Shown: piece after piece, positions 3,620 to 43,506 of the stretch | Position numbering within the stretch: the stretch's first letter is position 1 | Layout: the number at the start of each line of letters is the position of its first letter | NCBI GenBank assembly: GCA_951406725.2 | Contig: OX597819.1 | Coordinates: forward strand, 4,278,001 to 4,342,000 | Source: Octopus vulgaris | Lineage: Eukaryota | Length of the DNA stretch: 64,000 bases | Direction of reading: 5' to 3' | Notes under the pieces: model-generated | What the model saw: the letters and a program-made list of their open reading frames with translations, nothing else | Databases searched by the model: none | What the model was told of the DNA's origin: nothing | Position numbers and translations under genes: made by a program

Positions 3620-6460
3620 TTTCGATTGAGCTAGGGTGCACAAATGTGCGTAGGCTGGGTCGAAATGGAAACAAGGTTGTTTCCTGGACGACCTCAGGTC
3701 ACGACATATAGATGTGGCCATTGCAACTGAGTCCAAGATCAGTGGACCACAAGCGTTCTCGCCTCTTCTGGATGGCTATGAGAAATTTATTTCTCCTAGC
3801 CGACGAGGAGGAGGGAGCGTGGTGGTTCTACTCCGGAAGACCTTGGACTTACAGGTAAGTACAGTCTTTCTGGACCCTGGTCGTCCTAGATGTGACCCAC
3901 GAGAGTAAATAGTCCTTCAGGCTGGTAGCTGTCTATGTTCCTAAGGAGTGTAGGCAGTATGAGTTTTTTTTCGAAACCTGGAGCACTTTCTAATGACGTC
4001 AAAAACGGTAGTTCTGTCAGGAGAATTTAACACTATCTTCGATGTGCGGTTGGATAGTGTTGGCTCGACTGAGGAGGGGAAATCCTGGCCTCAAGGGTCT
4101 ACTAGAGAGCTATAACCTAGTAGACCGTTACAGACTGGATGAGCCGAGCGTTCCACAGTGGACGTGGAGTAATAACGGCGGCTCATACAGATCTTAAATA
4201 GACAAGGTATTCGTTTGAGATAGGGATACTTTTAGTTATCCACAATTTTGCATTGTGCCTTACATGGATCACAAATTTGTGATGTGTGAGGTACATATAG
4301 ATAAATGTCATAGACAGGGACCCGGGTACTGGGAAATGAACAAGTCTATTTTGACTTGTGAAGCCTTCCGTACCCGGATTAAGGATTTAGTACGCAGGGC
4401 ACTATGTGGTGCCATCATTAATAATAAATGGCGGCACGTCCTCAAGAGAGCCATTCGTTTAGAGTCTATTAGATTTAGCAATCAGCTAAGTTTAACTAGA
4501 TCTAGAATAGAAAAGGAACTAGTTAAGAATTTAGACGAAGCTATGGAATCTGACTCTGCAGCTAGAGTGCTGGCAGCGGGAACTGTCCTGTACCGTCATC
4601 TCAAAGCCAAGAACGAAGGCTGTAGAGTTAGAGCTAAGCTCCGTGCAGTAGGACGAGAAGGTATTAACGGTGCCGGATGGGCCCGTCGTGTGGAGTGTCT
4701 GAGGGGCAAAAAAAGCACCTATAAAGTCTTTAACTGACGAACAGGGGCGCAAGATCTATAGACAGGAAAAGATGAAAAAGGCCTTTCACCAGCATTTCGC
4801 CCGGTTGTTTGGGTCCGGACGGGCTCTGTCCCTGAAGGGAAGAGCGGAGGTGGTACAGGTGTCATCACCTACCGCCTAACTGTTGTCCCTTGTCCCGACT
4901 CGTGGCGAAACAAGTTGGAGCGCCTCCTCTTCCGCTTTTTGTGGAAAGGAGGAAAGCCACTTGTGAGACGCTCTGTCTGCTGCCAGGAACTGCTAATGGG
5001 TGGGTTAGGGATGCTCTGGCTAATGATGCGCAGACATGTGTTGAGGCTGAGGCTCTCTAGCACCGCCTGGAGGGTGACAAGGTGTGGAATCCGCTGGCAG
5101 AGGAATTCTTTCCACGACCAGCCTCCTTGGAGTGATTCGAACCCGGTTTCATTAAAAGACGTAATCTGACTGAATGGCAAAAGGAGTGTCGACAGGCATT
5201 CGTGCTTATCACAAGACGGGCAAGGCCGGCAGTGGAAATACCTCCTCGGTTTGGTATAAAGTGTCGGTTTGTGGAGGCGCAATGGCCCAGTGATTAGGGC
5301 AGCGGACTCGCGGTCATAGGATCGCGGTTTCGATTCCCAGACCGGGCGTTGTGAGTGTTTATTGAGCGAAAACACCTAAAGCTCCACGAGGCTCCGGCAG
5401 GGGGTGGTGGTGATCCCTGCTGTACTCTTTCACCACAACTTTCTCTCACTCTTACTTCCTGTTTCTGTTGTACCTATATTTTAAAGGGCCGGCCTTGTCA
5501 CTCTCTGTGTCACGCTGAATATCCCCGAGAACTACGTTAAGGGTACACGTGTCTGTGGAGTGCTCAGCCACTTACACGTTCATTTTACGAGCAGGCTGTT
5601 CCGTTGATTCGGATCAACCGGAACCCTCATCGTCGTAACCGACGGAGTGCTTCCATAAAGTGTTGTTAGAGAGTAAAAAACGATGGCGTCCTAGGAGGGC
5701 CGCTAGGGTTCGATGAGAACTAACTTACCAACTTGTTTCAAAAAACTTTCAGGCCAGGGTATTTGGATAATTATCAAAAATCCCTGACCTGGCAATGTTA
5801 TCGTAACGCTTTACCTATTCGTGAGAATTTATCCAAGCACTGAATGTCAGTGCCATCGACATGTCCAAGAACTGGGTTGGACGAGGAAACCGTGCAGCAC
5901 GCTCTTGTACATTGTTGGAAGCTGTCAGGCTTGATAATTTACGTTGTCGCATCTGGGTAGAGTATAGCTATCGGCTGAATCTATGATAAAGATGGGAACG
6001 CCAACCGGACTCACAAAGGAAGGTGACATGTTTTCTCTGTACAGTTGCAGTGACGAAAGAGTGTGTATGGAGGACTAGAATGCAAGGGCTCGTGACGGGA
6101 TCCTTCATCTTCGGCCCTGGTCTGCTACTATACTTCAGATACCATCTGAAGAGCAAGATAGGGCTGGAGAGGAGGATTCTGTCACGAAACGTGTTTGAGA
6201 AAAGATAGAAGGCTGTGATAAGAAAGGTGGGTGTAAGTAACCCTACTTAACCGTCATTAAAAAAAGGAAAGGGATAGCCGCTGGGCCTTTCAGGCAACCG
6301 GGTATAACCCCGCAAAACAAAAGGTAACGTATATTATATATATATATATCATCAATATTTTTAAGCCATAAGTTATACTCGAGCTCATTATAACAATATA
6401 TGTGTGCATTGTCCTGTACTGTCCACTCTTTATGTGATATTTATTATCGTAATAAAAAAA
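3620..6460 (+). mobile_element. Degenerate L1/Tx1-clade LINE ORF2 with an internal deletion of the RT core
   Basis: APE motifs (NVR.L, ATESK, QWTW, DHKFV, GPGYWEMNKSIL), post-RT LFRFLWKG..GGLG, C-terminal EETVQHALVHC and a final AATAAAAAAA; many stops and frameshifts. Confidence 0.85.
5265..5654 (+). mobile_element. Full-length tRNA-derived SINE inserted in the Tx1 LINE
   Basis: A-box TGGCCCAGTGA, B-box GGTTTCGATTCCC; target-site duplication ATAAAGTGT at 5256-5264 and 5655-5663. Confidence 0.9.
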
Positions 6461-17072: not shown

Positions 17073-17332
17073 CAGGACCACTAAGAGAGCGAACCTCCGC
17101 CAAGGCAATACCAAAAATTGTTCTCAACGCTTAGCCGGAGATAATTTTCAAAATGAAAATATCTGAAGTAAACTCGATTGCTCTCACAAACGAGAATACT
17201 AAAAATGAAACCGACTGCTCTGAAAGATTAAGTAAAAAATTAGAAAAAATTCTTGTACGGTACCAGATCGATCCCCAAATATAATCAGTTCGAGCCAATC
17301 ACGAGACCAAACATCCCTGAAAGTACTATGTG

Positions 17333-17720
17333 GTAAGGATTCCGGCTACTGGAAACTCAATAAGTCCCTTTTGGCAATTGAGAAGTACAGGAGCCGGATT
17401 AAGTTATTAATACAGAGGGCGTTGACCGGTTCCATTATTAACAACAAATGGTGGTACACCGTCAAAGGAGCCATTAAATTCGAGTCTCTTAGATATAGTA
17501 TAGGTTTAGTGGATAGAGGGCGTAAGAAGGAAACTGAATTAGTTAAGGCTGTAGAGGAAGCCATAAGAACTGGCGACGCATCCCAGGTGAAGGTGAAGAG
17601 ACTGAAGTTAAAGCAGCACCTCGAAGCCAACACATGGGGTGTATCGTCAGGGCTAGACTTCGTGCAATGGGGAGCGAGGGAATCAAGGCCGCTGGATGGT
17701 CACGTGCTGTAGAAGCTCAA
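17333..17720 (+). pseudogene. L1/Tx1 ORF2 fragment
   Basis: GSGYWKLNKSLL..RALTGSIINNKWW, homologous to the ORF at 4255-4737. Confidence 0.8.
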
Positions 17721-20998: not shown

Positions 20999-21061
<63 letters not shown>

Positions 21062-21077
21062 CATGCATACATACATA

Positions 21078-21162
<85 letters not shown>

Positions 21163-21166
<4 letters not shown>

Positions 21167-21441
21167 ATAAATATTAGGGAATGAATCCAAAATTACAGGG
21201 AAAAATCAGATTTAGGGTTAAATCCAATTTTATAGTAAAATATTATATAATATAATTCGAGACAAAACCACTATTTTAAAACTAAACAAGGAAAGACTTA
21301 ATCAATACATAAAATTTTAATATAAAATAAATAAATAAATAAATAAATAAATAAATTTTATATAAAATTTATTTTATATTAAAATTTTATGTATTGATTA
21401 AGTCTTTCCTTGTTTGGTTTTAAAATAGTGGTTTTGTCTCG

Positions 21442-21450
<9 letters not shown>
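21163..21450. mobile_element. Fold-back of a PLE-like terminal sequence (family C, HHR absent)
   Basis: 21248-21325 is inverted at 21372-21450; same sequence as 25312-25470. Confidence 0.7.
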
Positions 21451-21496
<46 letters not shown>

Positions 21497-21628
21497 TATA
21501 ATTTATATATAGAGGGCATTATTATACATACATGCCACACGCTAAGAGGGACAATTAGTCATTTCTACCAAAAATTTTACTAATCCCACCGAATGCAATT
21601 TTTCAAAGTAAGACATTTAAAAATATAG

Positions 21629-21673
21629 ACTTGTATCACCTGTGATTTCATACCTCTGTATTCATCAGCAAGC
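21629..21673 (-). ncRNA. Type I hammerhead ribozyme, family B
   Basis: Reverse complement of 22281-22325. Confidence 0.85.
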
Positions 21674-22280
21674 CTGAACGTATCATAAATAAACGACCCT
21701 ACCTCGTCTAAGCCGAGCAGCTAACTGATCAACATCAACGAAGCACATAGGTGAGTTTATATATATTACATCCGGTAAATGGCAGACTTTTACGAATTGC
21801 ATTTCGGGAAAAAGAAAAGTTTTTTCGGAATAAAAATTTAGCAATTAAGGACAACTTCTTAATAAGGAAAACTTAACAAGAAATTATCAGGTAGATAGCG
21901 TGAAAGACCTCATAAGAGAAAAAATTTCGAAAATAATTCTTTCTTATTGAACATGCGTGTGGCATGTATGTATAATAATGCCCTCTATATATAAATTAAT
22001 ATGTTCAATAAGAAAGAATTATTTTCGAAATTTTTTCTCTTATGAGGTCTTTCACGCTATCTACCTGATAATTTCTTGTTAAGTTTTCCTTATTAAGAAG
22101 TTGTCCTTAATTGCTAAATTTTTATTCCGAAAAAACTTTTCTTTTCCCGAAATGCAATTCGTAAAAGTCTGCCATTTACCGGATGTAATATATATAAACT
22201 CACCCATGTGCTTCGTTGATGTTGATCAGTTAGCTGCTCGGCTTAGACTAGGTAGGGTCGTTTATTTATGATACGTTCAG

Positions 22281-22325
22281 GCTTGCTGATGAATACAGAG
22301 GTATGAAATCACAGGTGATACAAGT
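22281..22325 (+). ncRNA. Type I hammerhead ribozyme, family B
   Basis: GCTTG-CTGATGA-ATAC-AGAG-GTAT-GAAA-TCAC-AG-GTGA-TA-CAAGT; predicted cut after A22320. Confidence 0.88.
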
Positions 22326-22573
22326 CTATATTTTTAAATGTCTTACTTTGAAAAATGGCATTCGGTGGGATTAGTAAAATTTTTGGTAGAAATGACTAAT
22401 TGTCCCTCTTAGCGTGTGGCATGTATGTATAATAATGCCCTCTATATATAAATTAATATGTTCAATAAGAAAGAATTATTTTCGAAATTTTTTCTCTTGT
22501 GAGGTCTTTCACGCTATCTACCTGATAATTTCTTGTTAAGTTTTCCTTATTAAGAAGTTGTCCTTAATTGCTA

Positions 22574-22638
<65 letters not shown>

Positions 22639-22659
22639 TACATATATACATATATATAC

Positions 22660-22798
<139 letters not shown>

Positions 22799-23052
22799 TT
22801 AACAATTAAGGATAACTTCTTAATAAGGAATCTTAACAAGAAATTATCAGGTAGATAGCGTGAAAGACCTCATAAGAGAAAAAATTTCGAAAATAATTCT
22901 TTCTTATTGAACATATTAATTTATATATAGAGGGCATTATTATACATACATGCCACACGCTAAGAGGGACATTAGTCATTTCTACCCAAAAATTTTACTA
23001 ATCATACCGAATGCAATTTTTCAAAGCAAGACATTTAAAAAATGAATTTAGT

Positions 23053-23108
23053 ATTGTATCACCTGTGATTTCGTACTTACCGCAGTTGCGACCGTACTCA
23101 TCAGCAAG
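23053..23108 (-). ncRNA. Type I hammerhead ribozyme, family B variant
   Basis: CTTG-CTGATGA-GTAC-GGTCGCAACTGCGGTAA-GTAC-GAAA-TCACAGGTGA-TA-CAAT. Confidence 0.85.
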
Positions 23109-23140
23109 ACTGATTCTGAACATATCATAAATAAACGACC

Positions 23141-23512
<372 letters not shown>

Positions 23513-23527
23513 AAATATATATATATA

Positions 23528-24852
23528 ACTCAGCTCCTACAACACTATGACTGGGTGCTGAAACAACTGCTCAACCACTCAAATGTGGAAGTCATATATC
23601 TCGACTTTGCAAAGGCCTTTGATAAAGTCGATCACGGAATGATATGTCACAAACTGCGTGATCTTGGCATAGTTGGAAAATTGGGAGAATGGCTTCATGA
23701 CTTTCTGAAGAATAGAAGTCAGGTGGTAGCAGCCAATGGGGCCACTTCCATTAACACGCAAATAGTGAGCGGTGTTCCGCAGGGCACTGTTTTGGGACCA
23801 CTACTGTTCATAATGGCCCTCTCAGACATGCCCTCAGCCACGCAGAGAGCCACGATCACAAGTTATGCAGATGATACAAAAGTTTCACAGGCAATACAGA
23901 ACCCTGAAGACACTAAGCACCTGCAATGTGAGCTGGACGAAATATACAAGTGGGCTGAAAAGAATAGCATGCAGTTCAATGCTGAAAAGTTTCAAGCTTT
24001 ATACTATCGGCATGCAAAACTGAATGCAATACCCAATGAATACACTGGACCCGGAGAGATTGCAATCCCAGAGGCACAATCAGTGCGTGACCTGGGTATT
24101 CACATGAGTGATGACGCGACCTTTCATGTACATGTTGCTAAACTGACAATGAAATGTAGACGGCTGGCTGGATGGATTCTTAGAACCTTTAGAACAAGAG
24201 AACAAGAAACCATGATGGTCCTCGGGAAGACACTTGTCCTAAGCCACTTTGACTATTGCTCTCAGCTATGGTCACCATCCAGTGTCAAGTTGATCACAGA
24301 ACTTGAGGCGATCCAACGAAGCTACACGAAGAAGATAGCCTCTGTGCAGCATATGAGCTACTGGGAAAGACTCAAGATATTAAAGCTCTATTCCCTGGAG
24401 CGTAGGCGAGAAAGGTATGCCATAATATACATCTGGAAGATCCTGGAAGGACTTGTCCCAAACTTTGGCATCGAGAGTCACACAAATGCCAGAACTGCGT
24501 AGTACCAAGGACTCCAAATTTGCCATCAAGATGTAGGACAAGATACTGTGACAGCCTGGGCTTCAGAGGCCCACAGCTCTTCAATATCCTCCCGAAGAAC
24601 CTGAGGGACCTGCATGGTGTAGATGCGGATGTCTTTAAAGTAGGACTGGATCTCTTCCTGTCAGGTGTCCCGGATGAACCAACTTCACGGCAGGAGGTGC
24701 AGATGAGGGCAGCTGCATCGAACTCTCTCATGCATCAGATGGCGTTTGCTAAAAAGCATCCGTGAGGTAAAATCGTGTAGCAAACCAAATGGCGGTGCCC
24801 CAGCATGGCCACAGCTCATTAGCTGAAACTAGAAAAATCAAAATCAAAATCA
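23528..24852 (+). mobile_element. 5'-truncated CR1-like LINE with 3' UTR
   Basis: RT ORF followed by a 3' stem-loop CAGCT-CATT-AGCTG and an (AAAATC)n tail. Confidence 0.92.
23555..24765 (+). pseudogene. LINE reverse transcriptase C-terminal part (frameshift near 24500)
   Basis: YLDFAKAFDKV, SGVPQGTVLGPLLF, SYADDTK, RDLG, YCSQLWSP and LYSLERRR motifs. Confidence 0.92.
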
Positions 24853-24904
24853 TATATACTAACAGAGATACACAGCATTGATCGTGATTAAAATGGCATA
24901 GCTT

Positions 24905-25125
24905 TTTTTATTGTTTTACTTCCTTCGGTCATGTGAATGCGACCATGCTGGAGCACCACCTTTAGTGGAAGAAATTGACAACAGGATTTATTCTTTCTAA
25001 GCATAGTACTTATTCTTTCGCTGTGTTTTGCAAACCACTAAGTTATGCGGACGTAAACACAGCAACATCGGTAGTCAAGTGATGGTGGGGGTACAAACAC
25101 AGACACAGACGCACAAATACACACA
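24905..25125 (-). mobile_element. SINE family C tail half
   Basis: Reverse complement GGTGGTGCTCCAGCATGGTCGCA. Confidence 0.7.
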
Positions 25126-25162
25126 CACACACATATATGCATATATATGTACATATATATAC

Positions 25163-25195
<33 letters not shown>

Positions 25196-25241
25196 TATAC
25201 ATAAAAGTATATACATGTACATAGATACATACATATCTATG

Positions 25242-25316
<75 letters not shown>

Positions 25317-25491
25317 ATAAATATTAGGGAATAAATCCAAATTTACAGGGAAAAAATCAGATTTAAGATTAAATCCAATTTTATAGTAAAATATTATAAA
25401 ATATTATTAGAGACAAAACCACTATTTTGCAAAACAAACAAGGAAAGACTTAATCAATACATAAAATTTTAATAAATAGTCAAAAAAACCG

Positions 25492-25534
25492 CCACTACAA
25501 TCGTTTCTTGTCTTGATCGACAATCTTCAGGTGG
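25492..25534 (-). ncRNA. Minimal type I hammerhead ribozyme, family C
   Basis: Reverse complement of 25582-25624. Confidence 0.8.
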
Positions 25535-25581
25535 ACTTCAATAAGTCAGTTTCAAATTTTTTGAAACTGACTTATTGAAGT

Positions 25582-25624
25582 CCACCTGAAGATTGTCGAT
25601 CAAGACAAGAAACGATTGTAGTGG
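25582..25624 (+). ncRNA. Minimal type I hammerhead ribozyme, family C
   Basis: CCAC-CTGAAGA-TTGTC-GATCAA-GACAA-GAAAC-GATT-GTA-GTGG. Confidence 0.82.
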
Positions 25625-25842
25625 CGGTTTTTTTGACTATTTATTAAAATTTTATGTATTGATTAAGTCTTTCCTTGTTTGTTTTGCAAAATAGTGGTTT
25701 TGTCTCTAATAATATTTTATATATATATATATATATAAATTCAGGGTGAATACTTGATAATTGTAAGCACCTGTATATACCATTTGGTGGTGTAGGTGGT
25801 AGTGTATATTAATCAAATTATAAACATGATGCCAAGGATTCA

Positions 25843-25920: not shown

Positions 25921-26162
25921 GCACAATTACTACTTCAAGGACATGTATTACATCATAAATTCTACGTTGGGGATGCAAATCCTCACAGTCGCGTACGACA
26001 TGGGGCACCAGCACAAAAATGAAGCGTCCATCACGTTTTTCACTCAATGTAGATTCTACATTGCGTGAAAGACGGGATGGAAGCAAGAGGGAGAAGGGAT
26101 GATGTGTATTTTGGAGAGATTAGAACGAATGGTGACGCGACTATATATACATACATACATAC

Positions 26163-26268
<106 letters not shown>

Positions 26269-26301
26269 ATATATATATATATGTATGTATGTATGTATAT
26301 A

Positions 26302-27538
26302 TAGTCGCGTCACCATTCGTTCTAATCTCTCCAAAATACTCATCATCCATTCTCCTTCCTGCTTTTCCCATCTTCTTCTCCTCTCAGTCGCCCCCCCCCC
26401 TGCAAATTCTGCATTACATAATTCATTTAGATCTTCTCTTTCATCAATTTCTCGCTCTCACCAAACAACGTAAACTCCACTCATTCCTCCATTCCATCAC
26501 AGCCGATGCCACTACTGCAACTCTTCCCTACTCCCCTCCCTCTCTGATACGCTCCTCCCACCTTCACCAAACCTCACCGTCCCTCCCAACCCCCATACAC
26601 ATACCCTTCATCTCCTCCCTCCAAGCCTTCCACCATCCCGCCACCCCTCCTACCTCTGACCCTCCACCCCTTCTTCACTTCAGTCTATTGCTACCATTCC
26701 TCCAGATTTTCATGTCTCTGAGGCGGAGCGCTCCCTTCTTAGTGGTGTCTGTGCTTCATCGCCCTCTCTCCATCCAGCAACGAATTTCGAACTCGAGCCG
26801 ATATCCACAGCTTTGTGCACCGCGTTATGCTGTGTTCGCTTTTCCGCAACACTCCACCTGCATCTAATGAGGAGAACTGCTTCACCGACCTGGGCAGCTA
26901 ACCATCCCAGTGGGCGCCAGCTCCTAGCCAGTTTCAAGCAGTCGATCTTTTTCCGGGCGCCTGCCAGTGTGCTTGTGAACCGATTTAAATTTTCCAAGTG
27001 TCCCCGACATCTGAACATCTCCCTAGCCGAACTCTCGCCCCTTCGATGTCTCCGACGCCGCACGGACATCATCATGAAACCGACTGACAAGGGTGGAGCG
27101 ATAGTGGTGTGGTGTGCGGATCTCTACAATGCGGAAGCTCTCTTCTAACTTCAAGACACCTCCTTTTACTGCCCTCTGCCCTCCAATCCCACGCCCAGCT
27201 ACCAACAGACTGTGTCCTCCACTATCCTTGACCTTATCTCTTCCTCCCGTCTCCCCCACCGCCTCTAACCTCATTGTCTGCACCCCTCGCACCCCCACAA
27301 TTTACTTCCTCTCCCAAATCCACAAACCTAACTAACCTGGCCGCCCCATTGTCTCCGCTGGCAACTGCCCCACCGAACACATCTCCAGATATCTTGACCG
27401 TGTTCTTGCACCCCCTTAGTGGATTCCCTCCCCTCTTACATCCATGACACCAACCATACTCTTCGTTTGTTCAACTCTTTCTCCTCCCGTCCTGGCCCCT
27501 CTAAACTTCTCTTCACTCTTGACATCAAGAGTCAATAC
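26302..27538 (+). pseudogene. Penelope-like element ORF fragment (N-terminus to RT motif A)
   Basis: IIMKPTDKGGAIVVW, YFLSQIHKPN*PGRPIVS, LPSYIHDT and LFTLDIKSQY; frameshifted. Confidence 0.88.
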
Positions 27539-28195
27539 AAAGTGGAAAACAAGACAAATAACATAAAGACAAGTAACATAAAGAACGACTCTTCATCAGT
27601 TGTCGGCTGTTTATCTAATCCACATTTCGAGCAATTCACGACAATATATGCAATGAGAAAACCATTGCTTCCGCAAACCAAAATAAAATTTGGGATTTTT
27701 CGGTGGGTCAAAGTTGGTAACAAAGACAGGAGAGTGAAACAAATAGTGAGGGCTGCTATGCTAGACGGGGTAAAGCGGCGAACGCTGAGCAATATTCTTT
27801 GACAGGAGAAAAGATAAAAGAGGAGACAGACAAGAATACGTCTGGTCTGTGCAACAGACCGGAAGAAAAGAAAGATAAACACGTGCGGAAAAAATGGACG
27901 ATGGTCACGTGTGAGCAACGAGAGAGTAAAGGAGGAAGATGAGGAGAGAGAGAGGGGAGGACAGGTAGAAAACGGCGAAGGGGAGAAAAAAGTATTAGAG
28001 AAATGATGAGAGGGAAAAAAAACGAAAGGGAGAGAAGGGGAGAAAATATAATTAGAGAAAGGAAGAGAGAGCAAAGCGAAAGAAGAGAGAGAGAGAGAAC
28101 AGTACAGAGGAGAGTCGCATCAAAATTATTAAGATAAACATATTTGGAAATGGATGCGTGGCGTGCAATCATAAGGTTGAATAATTAAAAGATAT
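27539..28195 (-). mobile_element. Non-coding repeat, probably a PLE terminal region
   Basis: Shares GACAACTGAWGAAG..TTCTTTATGTT with 42840-42900 and 45110-45200, and the GGATGCGTGGCGT end with 43470. Confidence 0.5.
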
Positions 28196-36779: not shown

Positions 36780-39096
36780 GATGAGTTTGTTTTAAAATTT
36801 GAGATTACAGAGACAGTATTTTATGTAGGACATGGATGGTTCCCATAAGCACTATCTTTTGAATTTCTGCCATTTTGGGGTTTTCTGGTATCTGAGCTAG
36901 GTAGCAATCAGCCCCTTTTGGTATCATTCCTATGACAACAGGTTTTAGTCTTGAAGTTCCACATCTTGCCAATTTCTATTTCAAGATCTTTATACTTGCT
37001 GAGTTTTTGGTAGGTCTTGACAGATACATGTATATCGATTGGGACAGTCATATCAATGAGGAGGCATGTTTTTTGTCTGAAGTCTTTCAATATAATGTCT
37101 GGCCTATTCGCATCTATCTTTCTGTCAGTTTGAATGGTGAATTTCCATAGGAGTGAGATGTGATCATTTTCGAGCACTGGAGGCGGTTTGTATTCCGACC
37201 AGTTTTTATCATGGGACAGGTTCAGGTTTTTGCAAATTACCCAGTGAATGTATTGTGTTGCTCTATCATGCCTGTTGAGATACTCTGTTGGTGCAAGAAG
37301 ACTGCACATGGAGACAACATGATCAATGGTTTCATTTTGTTGGCATACACGACATGTTGGGCTACACGACATGTTGGCCTAGTAGTTTCTTGTCGGTAGG
37401 CATTGATCTTGGGCTGCTCCACTAACCATTAAGGGATAAAAGCTTTGTTAATATCGGTACTATTAGCTCTCTTTGGGTATTTGCCGTTGAGAGATTTTTC
37501 TTGCCATTTATCAGTAAGAATATCTAAGACAGCAGTTTTAGAGCGGGTTTTCATACGCTTAGCCTTTTCTGTGCTTGTTTCTAGTACGTCTAATTCTGGA
37601 ATTTGTTGTATTTGGAATTCACTTAGATATTCCTTTGCCTGTTTTGTTACTGAGTATGATGCTTTCTTGTTTTCATTCTTTGAGACAAGTTTTAACATCC
37701 AATCCTCAAGGCCAATTGTAGCAATCTTCATTGTTATTGCCAGTTGTAAAAGTCCACGGCCTCCCTCTTTTCTTGGCAGAGAAAGTCGTTCTATATCTGC
37801 CTTAAGGTGGTGCATTCTATGCATTGTCAACAGTTTTCGTATTTTACTGTCAAGATTACATATTTCAGTAATTGACCAGTTAACGATATTGAAACTGGTA
37901 TGGCTAAAGCATTGATCGCTTCGATCCTGTTTCTCGCATTCAGCTCTGTCTTGAGTATTGCTATTACTCTGCGATAACATTCTCTCCTGATCCTTTCCTT
38001 CAGCACTGAATGCCTTATTCCGTCCCCTTCAATTACCCCTAGGTACTTGTAGCTCTCCGCTGGGTGTAACTCTTTTATGACGTTCTGCTGGTCGAGGTAA
38101 ACGTTAGATGTTTCTGTCATTTTTCCTTTGATAAAGGTAGCTTTTGCACATTTATCGAGGCCAAATTGCATCCTGATGTCATCACTGAAATGTTTAACAA
38201 TCGTTAGTAAGTCCTTGAGTTGTTGGTCATTTTTTGCATAGAGCTTTAAATCATCCATGTAAATGAGATGATTTATATTTTTATCCAACATTTTATATCC
38301 GTACTGTGCGTCATTGAGCAATTTTGAGAGAGGTATTAAGGCTAAACAAAAGAGGAGTGGTGATAGTGAGTCGCCCTGGAAAAGGTCACATGAAATTTTT
38401 ATATCACCAGCATTTAGAGATTCATCGTCACTGTTCAAAGTTAGTGTGGTTCTCCATGATCTCATACTTACAGACAAAAAGTTTCACAGAGTAGGTGCTA
38501 TTTTATACATTTCCAGGCATTTCTTAATCCAGCTATGTGGTAGACTATCAAAAGCCTTTTTATAGTCTATCCAGGCTATTGATAAGTTTTTGTGTCGTTT
38601 GCGACAATCTTCTAAGATTGTTTAATCATATCAAAGATAATAATACAACCATAGGATCCACGTTGACATATTTTCTGTTCATTAGGGAATATGCTGCTGT
38701 CTATTAAAAAACTATAGGCATATTCCATCAGGACAGATGTTAGCGTTTTATATATTGTTGTTAAGCAGGTCTATAGTTTTTTGGTTCATTTGTTTCTTCA
38801 CTTTTTGAGAGCAGGAATGTTAAACCATTAACTAGTCAAGCAGGCATCCTTCTAGGGTGTTACAAAACATCATTGTAAAGTTCTGTTAGCAGTTCATGGC
38901 TCTCTGGGAAGGCATTTAACCAGAAGTTAGGAATTTTGTCCTTTCCTGGAGACTTCCATTTGCTTGATCTCCTGGGAGCAGATCTTACATCTTCTAACTT
39001 GACACCCTCCCACTGCTCCTCTAAGGAGTACAAGTCCGTAGCTATTATATCAATCCAAGGGGCTTCTTCGTTGTGTGTTTTTTCTTCTACCCAAAT
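36780..39096 (-). mobile_element. 5'-truncated R4/Dong LINE abutting (TAA)n
   Basis: FQGDSLSPLLF, HLIYMDDLKLY, FGLDKC, YKYLG, CRVC..ETIDHVVSMC, RHD, NRPDI and K.SKYKDL; TAA tract at 39097-39187. Confidence 0.92.
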
Positions 39097-40962: not shown

Positions 40963-41443
40963 AATGTCAACATAAAAACAATGTCATTTACACAAGTGAA
41001 ACAGATAATTTGATAAGGACTGGAGACAGCCGTCAACACATCTACATAAAACAACAGAAATGTATTTAACATCAGCCAAAGACGAAATTAACAAAGAAAC
41101 AAGAAAAGTGATAAACATTTGTATTTGATATATACCACCCGACAAACACTAAAGTACTAAAATAAAGAAATTAACAAAGTCAGCAATTCTAACGACAGCT
41201 ACATCGCACCACATGTCACAGAAACAACTTGAAGTGAGAGACCCAAATCTCAACAACAAGAGAATTCTCTTATCTAACATCTTTTCAAAATTGGGCACAA
41301 CGATGAAAGAAACAAAATGCAGTAGACATATTTTCCATCTAGATCGTAATCTCCATCTTTGTTATCCATCGGACACCAAGCAAGCAATAAGAGAATTAAA
41401 AAATTCCAAAACGTTAAAACCTGTTTATATTTCAAGTATATAC

Positions 41444-41667
41444 CTATTTCTATTTCTTTACTACTCACAAGGGGCTAAACACAGAGGGGACAAACAAGGA
41501 CAGACATAGGTATTAAGTCGATTACATCGACCCCAGTGCGTAACTGGTACTTTATTTATCGACCCCGAAAGTCGACCGCAGCGGAATTTGAACTCAGAAC
41601 GTAACGGCAGGCGAAATACCGCAAGGCATTTCGCCCGGCGTGCCAACGTTTCTACCAGCTCGCCGCT
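41444..41667 (-). mobile_element. SINE family M
   Basis: Reverse complement of the 23286-type consensus. Confidence 0.88.
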
Positions 41668-42660: not shown

Positions 42661-43208
42661 AATACTATAATCATAAGTGATTATATATTGAATTTTGAGA
42701 TACTAATATATATACATATATATATATGTATATATATATATGTATATATATATATATGTATATATATATGTATATATATATATATGTATGTATATAGATA
42801 TATATACACACACACGCAATATATATACATACATACAAGCGGAATAGATGAAGCAGTGGACAACTGATAAAGGGAATGTTCTTTATGTTATAAGTGTCGT
42901 TTCTCTGGGTTTTTTTCGTTATTCGAAAACAAGTTCGTTTCTATGTTTTTGCTTTTATGTTTTCGTTTCCCATTGTGTCTAGGTTTTATTTTGATGTCGT
43001 GCACCCATATATGCATGTATACATACATCTATATATAGGTATGTACATATATGTATGTACATAGGCATATATTTATATATTATTTATATTATATGATCGA
43101 ACACCACACAACCTTTTCCAAGTAAGTTTTATCTACATACATATACATACATACATACATATACATACATACATACATACATACATACATACATACATAC
43201 ATACATAC

Positions 43209-43435
43209 AGCGAGCTGGCAGAAACGTTAGCGCCCCGGGTGAAATGCTTAGCGGTATTTCGTCTGACATTACGTTCTGAGTTCAAATTCCGCCGAGGTAG
43301 ACTTTGCCTTTCATCCTTTCGGGGTCGATAAATAAAGTACCAGTTTCGCACTGGGGTCGATGTAATCGACTTAATCCATTTGTCTGTCCTTGTTTGTCCC
43401 CTCTATATTTAGCCCCTTGTGGGTAGTAAAGAAAT
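43209..43435 (+). mobile_element. Full-length SINE family M
   Basis: Near identical to 23286-23512. Confidence 0.9.
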
Positions 43436-43506
43436 ATATATATATATACGATAAAATTTACTTGGAAAAGGATGCGTGGCGTTCGATCATATAATAATAT
43501 AAATAA

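Follow-up and report, generated by a model that had tools for sequence, protein, structure and literature searches.

A long-loop hammerhead motif in a protein-free 457-nt repeat of Octopus vulgaris and the paired changes among its versions

The locus and its 457-nt unit

We analyzed a stretch of 64,000 nt of the Octopus vulgaris genome (contig OX597819.1, positions 4,278,001 to 4,342,000), which is called the window here and whose own numbering is used throughout. The window is AT-rich and contains 94 microsatellite rows and decayed retroelement ORFs. In one part of it, a repeat unit defined by its 457-nt spacing is present three times in TA tracts, and its copies carry hammerhead motifs of a short-loop (A) or a long-loop (B) form. 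The features of this locus are as follows.

21445-21494, no strand: TA microsatellite flanking the inverted copy
21495-21954, minus strand: inverted copy, nearly exactly one circularly permuted unit from unit position 336
21627-21675, minus strand: third hammerhead motif (A2), same sequence as A1
21955-22122, plus strand: 3′-terminal 168 nt of the unit, in tandem and head to tail with the full unit that follows, 99% identical to 22412-22579
22123-22579, plus strand: full unit, 457 nt, 33% GC, longest ATG ORF 42 aa
22279-22327, plus strand: A1, a type I hammerhead motif with the short loop AGAG and a predicted cut after 22320
22580-22789, no strand: TA microsatellite separating the A1 copy from the B copy, whose 3′ ends face it
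22790-23142, minus strand: 5′-truncated copy bearing B, 353 nt
23042-23118, minus strand: long-loop (B) type I hammerhead motif, from sequence and fold prediction
23143-23285, no strand: TA microsatellite adjoining the B copy on its 5′ side

The plus strand holds 1.37 units in head-to-tail organization and the minus strand one permuted unit. This inverted copy (21495-21954) is joined head to head with the plus strand array and differs by 5 substitutions, a 1-nt insertion and a ragged last 4 nt. In two copies the 3′ end of the unit runs straight into the unit start, with a period of 457 nt and without an ORF. The copy bearing B begins 85 nt upstream of the predicted cut, and its 3′ end joins the TA tract at a unit position close to that at which the plus strand copy ends; a B-type unit would measure about 481 nt. 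When the unit was folded as a circle, the predicted energy had a z-score of −3.2 relative to 60 shuffles. All three copies span the predicted cut and none of them starts there. Because one of them is also a permuted monomer, the template that was copied is likely to have been a circle or an uncut multimer.

The copies could alternatively be the end repeats (pLTRs) of an autonomous Penelope-like element (PLE), left after 5′ truncation, and not a free non-coding retrozyme. The 5′ truncation, the partial tandem, the inverted 5′ copy and the TA targets form the footprint of PLEs given in the accessible text of PMC8557442, and a 2026 preprint (10.64898/2026.07.22.740005) describes, in its accessible part, retrozymes as homologous to pLTRs. 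A decayed PLE-like RT fragment also lies about 3.5 kb away. However, this fragment has no listed similarity to the unit, and the 457-nt period in two copies, with unit end directly followed by unit start and no ORF between them, speaks against this account. We looked for an ORF of 150 aa over 21495-23142 and found none, hence no RT plus GIY-YIG ORF is present there. We consider the end-repeat account unlikely; if it were correct, the ribozyme reading and the selection argument given below would be unchanged.

Other elements were observed in the surroundings. At least three insertions into TA tracts are clustered in 21000-23290, if one counts a palindromic remnant at 21226-21461 which adjoins the 457-nt family. 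This remnant is a shorter form of a second, unrelated hammerhead family and ends before the ribozyme. The second family itself lies in a near-perfect fold-back at 25377-25741, with cores at 25586 (plus strand) and 25530 (minus strand), a 5-pair helix II and a 2-pair helix III. At 26660-27560 (plus strand), preceded by a fold-back at 26069-26374, there is a decayed RT-like fragment with the words KPTDKG and DIKSQY, which we take to be Penelope-type motifs. It has no Pfam match, and its nearest atlas clusters carry DUF8422 on 28-49% of their members. A DKG motif is named in the accessible text of PMC8557442. A LINE-type RT fragment (RVT_1, E = 6.7 × 10−20) is located just past the TA tract at 23501-24502 (plus strand), and further RT-like fragments were found at 36908-38483 (minus strand), 4219-4737 and 17236-17712. 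A dispersed SINE-like family of about 230 nt has many copies in the window (23287-23527, 2076-2307, 41436-41666, 43130-43449 and others).

Scans of genome-contig and viral-contig collections gave 0 matches each. Five loci from a metagenome scan were rejected as chance matches in DNA of 33-50% GC without a hammerhead fold.

The long-loop motif, its paired changes and its versions

The B motif runs in the order helix I, CUGAUGA, helix II, GAAA, helix III, triplet AUA, helix I. Its three helices, the core and GAAA were read from the sequence. The parts are as follows.

23113-23116/23044-23047, minus strand: candidate distal stem GAAU/AUUC
23105-23111/23050-23056, minus strand: helix I
23098-23104, minus strand: core CUGAUGA
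23094-23097/23073-23076, minus strand: helix II, GUAC/GUAC
23080-23091, minus strand: extra hairpin in loop 2, 4 pairs, AACU tetraloop, pair probabilities 0.84-1.0 in context
23069-23072, minus strand: GAAA
23058-23069, minus strand: helix III
23057, minus strand: predicted cut after A17, placed by hammerhead numbering

The type I signature, that is CUGAnGA, GAAA and a UH triplet in this order, is present with AUA as the triplet. Three helices can form around the core, with helix I open-ended, and standard pairs account for 14 of 15 in B and 15 of 15 in A. Loop 2 of B is GUAA plus 13 nt, and this insertion includes the extra hairpin. Judged from the letters, U1.7 appears to be kept in A and B, and the final letter of loop 2 is A in B and in the GUAA versions and G in A; a contact between U1.7 and the tetraloop is described in the accessible text of PMC11875169.

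A hammerhead descriptor gave 5 matches in the window, three of them motifs of the 457-nt family and two of another family, against a mean of 0.025 and a maximum of 1 in 40 first-order Markov simulations. Rfam at the gathering level gave 0 hammerhead matches over the whole window, and at E up to 5 over 21400-25800 it gave 38 matches, none of which was a hammerhead; a match to the Rfam library is no defining trait of the hammerhead fold. These 38 weak matches were rejected as hairpin and TA-repeat artefacts.

We compared A and B over 45 helix and core columns and found 5 substitutions, 4 of which form two double changes. From A to B, A-U becomes G-C at the base of helix II (ATAC/GTAT within 22293-22304 on the plus strand against GTAC/GTAC at 23094-23097/23073-23076 on the minus strand), and G.U becomes U-A at pair 5 of helix I. 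A single new C.U mismatch is found at helix I pair 4. CUGAUGA, GAAA and the 12-nt helix III segment are identical in A and B, and so is A17. In these substitutions, the core and helix III, a preliminary description of this DNA is confirmed, whereas other parts of it had to be corrected. The inner stem CGCA/TGCG that it proposed for the long loop would enclose a loop of 2 nt, and the predicted stem is instead UCGC/GCGG around AACU. Its GAAT/ATTC segments are a possible distal stem, with 3-4 pairs in AT-rich sequence and a pair probability of 0.0, which is weak evidence when taken alone; they are probably not a gain of B, a distal arm of helix I being found in short-loop versions too. The third copy of the motif (A2, 21627-21675, minus strand) had been overlooked.

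When 5 substitutions were placed at random over 45 columns, two or more double-compensatory pairs arose in 0.06% of 400,000 placements, in a test that leans towards structure because the columns were defined by structure. The core was left untouched by chance in 23% of the placements, which is unremarkable taken alone. Formal pair counting on the three window copies was not significant (173 of 500 shuffles reached the same score); it excluded helix I pairs 5-7, where the alignment misplaces a gap.

In the 3′ flank, the B copy and A1 share 233 matches, with 8 substitutions and 4 gap openings. Substitutions are denser in the ribozyme (5/45) than in this flank (8/241; Fisher's test, p = 0.037, post hoc), and the ribozyme helices also hold three indels between A and B. 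Shuffling between subfamilies would be an alternative account of the denser substitutions. The same extreme variability is reported in the accessible text of PMC4209133, where replication at the RNA level is suggested.

Here, we explored the motif in public sequencing runs. Part of the stretch is contained in 20 of 24 listed runs. We used runs X1, X2, X3 and X5, which are four of the five best-matching runs and come each from a different sample; the runs carry three organism codes, the run types are guesses, and contig depth is not copy number. Summed depth along the unit was kept out of copy ratios, because fragmented contigs inflate it.

The long loop of B is covered in all four runs, with a summed depth of 349-2,854 at 23084-23085. 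X5 has an exact 79-nt B contig over 23056-23134 (depth 295.6) and an exact 57-nt A contig (depth 388.9), and X1 and X3 have B-like contigs changed at 23084, 23085 and 23087, all inside the AACU loop. Such depths and distinct variants suggest that B does not come from one locus of low-coverage DNA, and the preliminary concern that the variant might be a single copy can be set aside.

Over 22240-22365 (A reference), 7 variant places were listed: 2 in the flank, 3 in loop 2, and both sides of pair 10.1-11.1. None of the 7 lies in the core, in helix III or in the three inner pairs of helix II. For phasing, summed depths and end distances were matched to single contigs among 32 of about 608 pieces. 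G10.1 and C11.1 are joined on one contig in X1 (record 1), X2 (record 12) and X5 (record 29), and A10.1 and U11.1 in X5 (records 25 and 28). The swap between G-C and A-U is phased in three of the four runs (X1, X2, X5; not X3), and in the phased contigs among the listed pieces the pair is A-U or G-C and never mixed. Each paired swap may be one old event. The versions of the ribozyme are as follows.

Version 1: A-U pair, AGAG loop; A1 and A2 in the window
Version 2: A-U pair, GUAA loop; run contigs
Version 3: G10.1 with GUAA loop, C11.1 shown in X1; run contigs
Version 4: G-C pair, loop retaining the first A; X5 record 29
Version 5: B, long loop; window and run contigs

The earlier estimate of at least two subfamilies is correct and understated, with at least five versions found. 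In record 30 of X5, G10.1 and GUAA stand together with a distal helix I arm resembling that of B, in a loose end before 22278, and the 5-nt 3′ counterpart of this arm is listed in X2, X3 and X5. In a further version among the loose ends, a single U replaces AG at the centre of helix III and the palindrome is kept. The change had been described as running from A to B; this direction is probably backwards, since the short GUAA loop, too, is found together with G-C and with the extra arm of helix I. A tenfold rise of depth just 3′ of the ribozyme was considered as a sign of truncation at the cut and was rejected, the loose ends there being other ribozyme versions.

Two observations concern the flank. 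The letter at 22866, with the matching A1 and A2 places, is common to all three window copies and makes up 3-29% of the summed depth in the four runs. Because the window copies share this minority letter, A and B may belong to one sub-lineage or may have swapped their 3′ parts. At 22939-22955, contigs of all four runs jump back by about 16 nt with 6-9 letters between, which suggests versions with a short tandem duplication, near the start of the plus strand array.

Five listed changes at 23084-23087 fall in the tetraloop of the extra hairpin. Changes at 23096 (helix II pair 2, in all four runs), at 23088 (G>T, in X1 and X3) and at 23091 (in X1, X2 and X3) would break pairs unless unseen partner changes accompany them, and those listed at 23094 and 23054 would yield U.G pairs. 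At the site of the C.U mismatch, the pairing letter makes up 68%, 90%, 31% and 11% of the summed depth in X1, X2, X3 and X5, and no change is listed at the adjoining 23052. Full pairing of helix I with U-A is probably frequent, on the evidence of a letter which is not phased to the long loop.

These data bear on the possibility that B is a dead or crippled mosaic, in which paired changes from older active lineages were assembled by template switching and the long loop spread on other signals without cutting. The mismatch in B, the density of substitutions in the ribozyme and the mixed combinations of features are consistent with it, as is the preference of B for inactive folds predicted for both monomer and dimer (see the next section). 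However, the long loop occurs in all four runs with its core intact, its listed changes cluster in the tetraloop, and the pairing letter at the mismatch is common. Thus, we regard a dead mosaic as quite improbable.

Predicted folding and a proposed course of spread

We estimated fold energies, which ignore tertiary contacts. The active hammerhead fold is predicted to lie above the monomer minimum by 3.4 kcal/mol in A and 6.4 kcal/mol in B, and in the predicted minimum of both the core is paired with the 5′ strand of helix III. Helix III is palindromic, and its 12-nt segment has 0.0 kcal/mol alone and −11.2 kcal/mol as a self-duplex. For two A motifs, the predicted cofold is the double hammerhead itself, at −25.6 kcal/mol, against a total of −20.4 kcal/mol for two separate monomers. 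The double hammerhead of two B motifs has −33.6 kcal/mol, compared with −34.4 kcal/mol for two misfolded monomers and −40.2 kcal/mol for the best dimer fold.

Lunse, Weinberg and Breaker have reportedly worked on the dimers of PLE hammerheads. The use of a dimer is the published model for such motifs in the accessible texts of PMC4209133 and PMC6765202. According to the part of the 2026 preprint (10.64898/2026.07.22.740005) that was available, cleavage failed in 8 of the 9 retrozyme dimers that had been predicted.

The fold might also serve something else than cutting, for example binding of the Penelope RT or packaging of the RNA, and be kept for that reason. Low activity in vitro is reported in the accessible text of PMC4209133, which leaves other functions possible, and 0 of the 3 copies begin at the predicted cut. 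However, every catalytic position is intact in the three copies and in the listed variants, and binding alone would not obviously need that; we hold such a role to be very unlikely.

In our opinion, the probable explanation is that B is a hammerhead motif in a 5′-truncated copy of a protein-free repeat of 457 nt, and that this repeat is likely a retrozyme which a Penelope-type enzyme copies. The repeat has at least five ribozyme versions, whose paired changes are likely to reflect selection for a predicted self-cutting fold, one that is probably most effective in a dimer. In this course of events, units would be transcribed as multimers, and these would be cut after the AUA triplet, mainly as dimers. 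The monomer, possibly as a circle, or an uncut multimer would be reverse-transcribed by a Penelope-type RT into TA repeats. Only versions that still cut would spread, and paired changes would thus be left behind. A lone motif is predicted to prefer an inactive fold, with its core on the 5′ strand of helix III, and the near-palindromic helix III would let two motifs form a double hammerhead.

Judged from its traits, the older form likely combined a GUAA tetraloop with G10.1-C11.1 and with a helix I of 6-7 pairs that carried a distal arm. This order is suggested by the canonical state in PMC4209133, which has G10.1-C11.1, 4 bp in helix II, and loop 1 on a helix I of 6 bp. B would derive from this form by a 13-nt hairpin gained inside the GUAA loop, and A by loss of the distal arm and a change to A-U with AGAG.

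A bolder idea, which we put forward as speculative and rather doubtful, is that the versions form a natural allelic series of a single hammerhead with a built-in off switch. In an RNA by itself, the palindromic helix III would hold the catalytic core captive, and only dimerization would release it. The more peripheral elements (the distal arm of helix I, the helix II base pair, loop 2 with or without hairpin, and the helix III centre) would evolve faster than the flanks and would be exchanged among subfamilies, either through template switching or through copying at the RNA level, and they would tune when multimers cut and circles stay intact.

Comparison with known systems

Cervera and de la Pena (2020, PMC7229834) have described animal non-LTR retrozymes, with monomers first reported at 150-450 bp in the accessible text, and Li, Clavereau and Pollet (2026, 10.64898/2026.07.22.740005) give 51-972 bp in the accessible part of their preprint. 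The 457 nt found here are slightly above the first range and inside the second. Like these retrozymes, the element has a head-to-tail organization and a non-coding, GC-poor monomer that is a few hundred bases long and bears a type I hammerhead; a retrozyme monomer is expected to be non-coding, with GC under 45-50% and a type I hammerhead, and at 457 nt and 33% GC the unit agrees with this. Several similar ribozyme families or versions in one genome are also a common trait: for animal retrozymes, the accessible texts give two families in mussel and axolotl and 16 in coral, and propose mobilization by PLEs.

There are also differences. Helix III has 4-5 pairs per arm here, whereas 1-2 are described for animal retrozymes, and B has a predicted hairpin inserted in loop 2. 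In the preprint, an active locus has two consecutive units with complete hammerheads; at the present locus two motifs in tandem on one strand were not found. With one motif in each array, this locus would be no more than an offspring of the monomer type.

Cervera and de la Pena (2014, PMC4209133) reported covarying hammerhead families in the pLTRs of PLEs. Our claim of paired changes is not new but the same as was made there for such families, and the evolution under RNA-structure constraint that the preliminary description proposed is supported by a kind of sign already described. G10.1-C11.1, a 6-bp helix I, a 4-bp helix II and a palindromic loop 3 are canonical traits in the accessible text of that paper, and the present family resembles them. 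The min-HHR described there has no helix III or one of 1-2 pairs, a helix II of 7-8 pairs and an extra base between 9 and 10.1. In contrast, our motifs lack the extra base, have a helix II base of 4 pairs and a helix I of 6-7 pairs, and possess helix III; what they share with min-HHR is a palindromic helix III region that permits a dimer. Unlike pLTR hammerheads, they have no RT-endonuclease ORF attached.

Craig et al. (2021, PMC8557442) have described the footprint of endonuclease-bearing PLEs, including a TA-targeting Hydra clade. To the extent that their accessible text covers it, the likeness extends beyond the 5′ truncation, partial tandem, inverted 5′ copy and TA targets to a canonical hammerhead near the 3′ end; the difference from these PLEs is that there is no protein at this locus. 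The element would behave as animal non-LTR retrozymes do, with insertion of the PLE type, and it is neither an autonomous PLE nor a min-HHR.

Our literature search found no name for the 457-nt family, and the supplements of PMC4209133, PMC7229834 and PMC8557442 may show similar motifs. In the main text of a 2026 octopus repeat annotation (PMC13282606), the words "ribozyme", "hammerhead" and "retrozyme" are absent, and in octopus the family may not yet be annotated as one that carries a ribozyme. It is one more animal family in a known class and supports the view that selection keeps these motifs. Because at least five ribozyme versions occur on the same flanks, monomer and dimer cleavage can be compared in one background. 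Such a comparison bears on the role of the hammerhead in Penelope-type elements and on the variability of these motifs within a genome.
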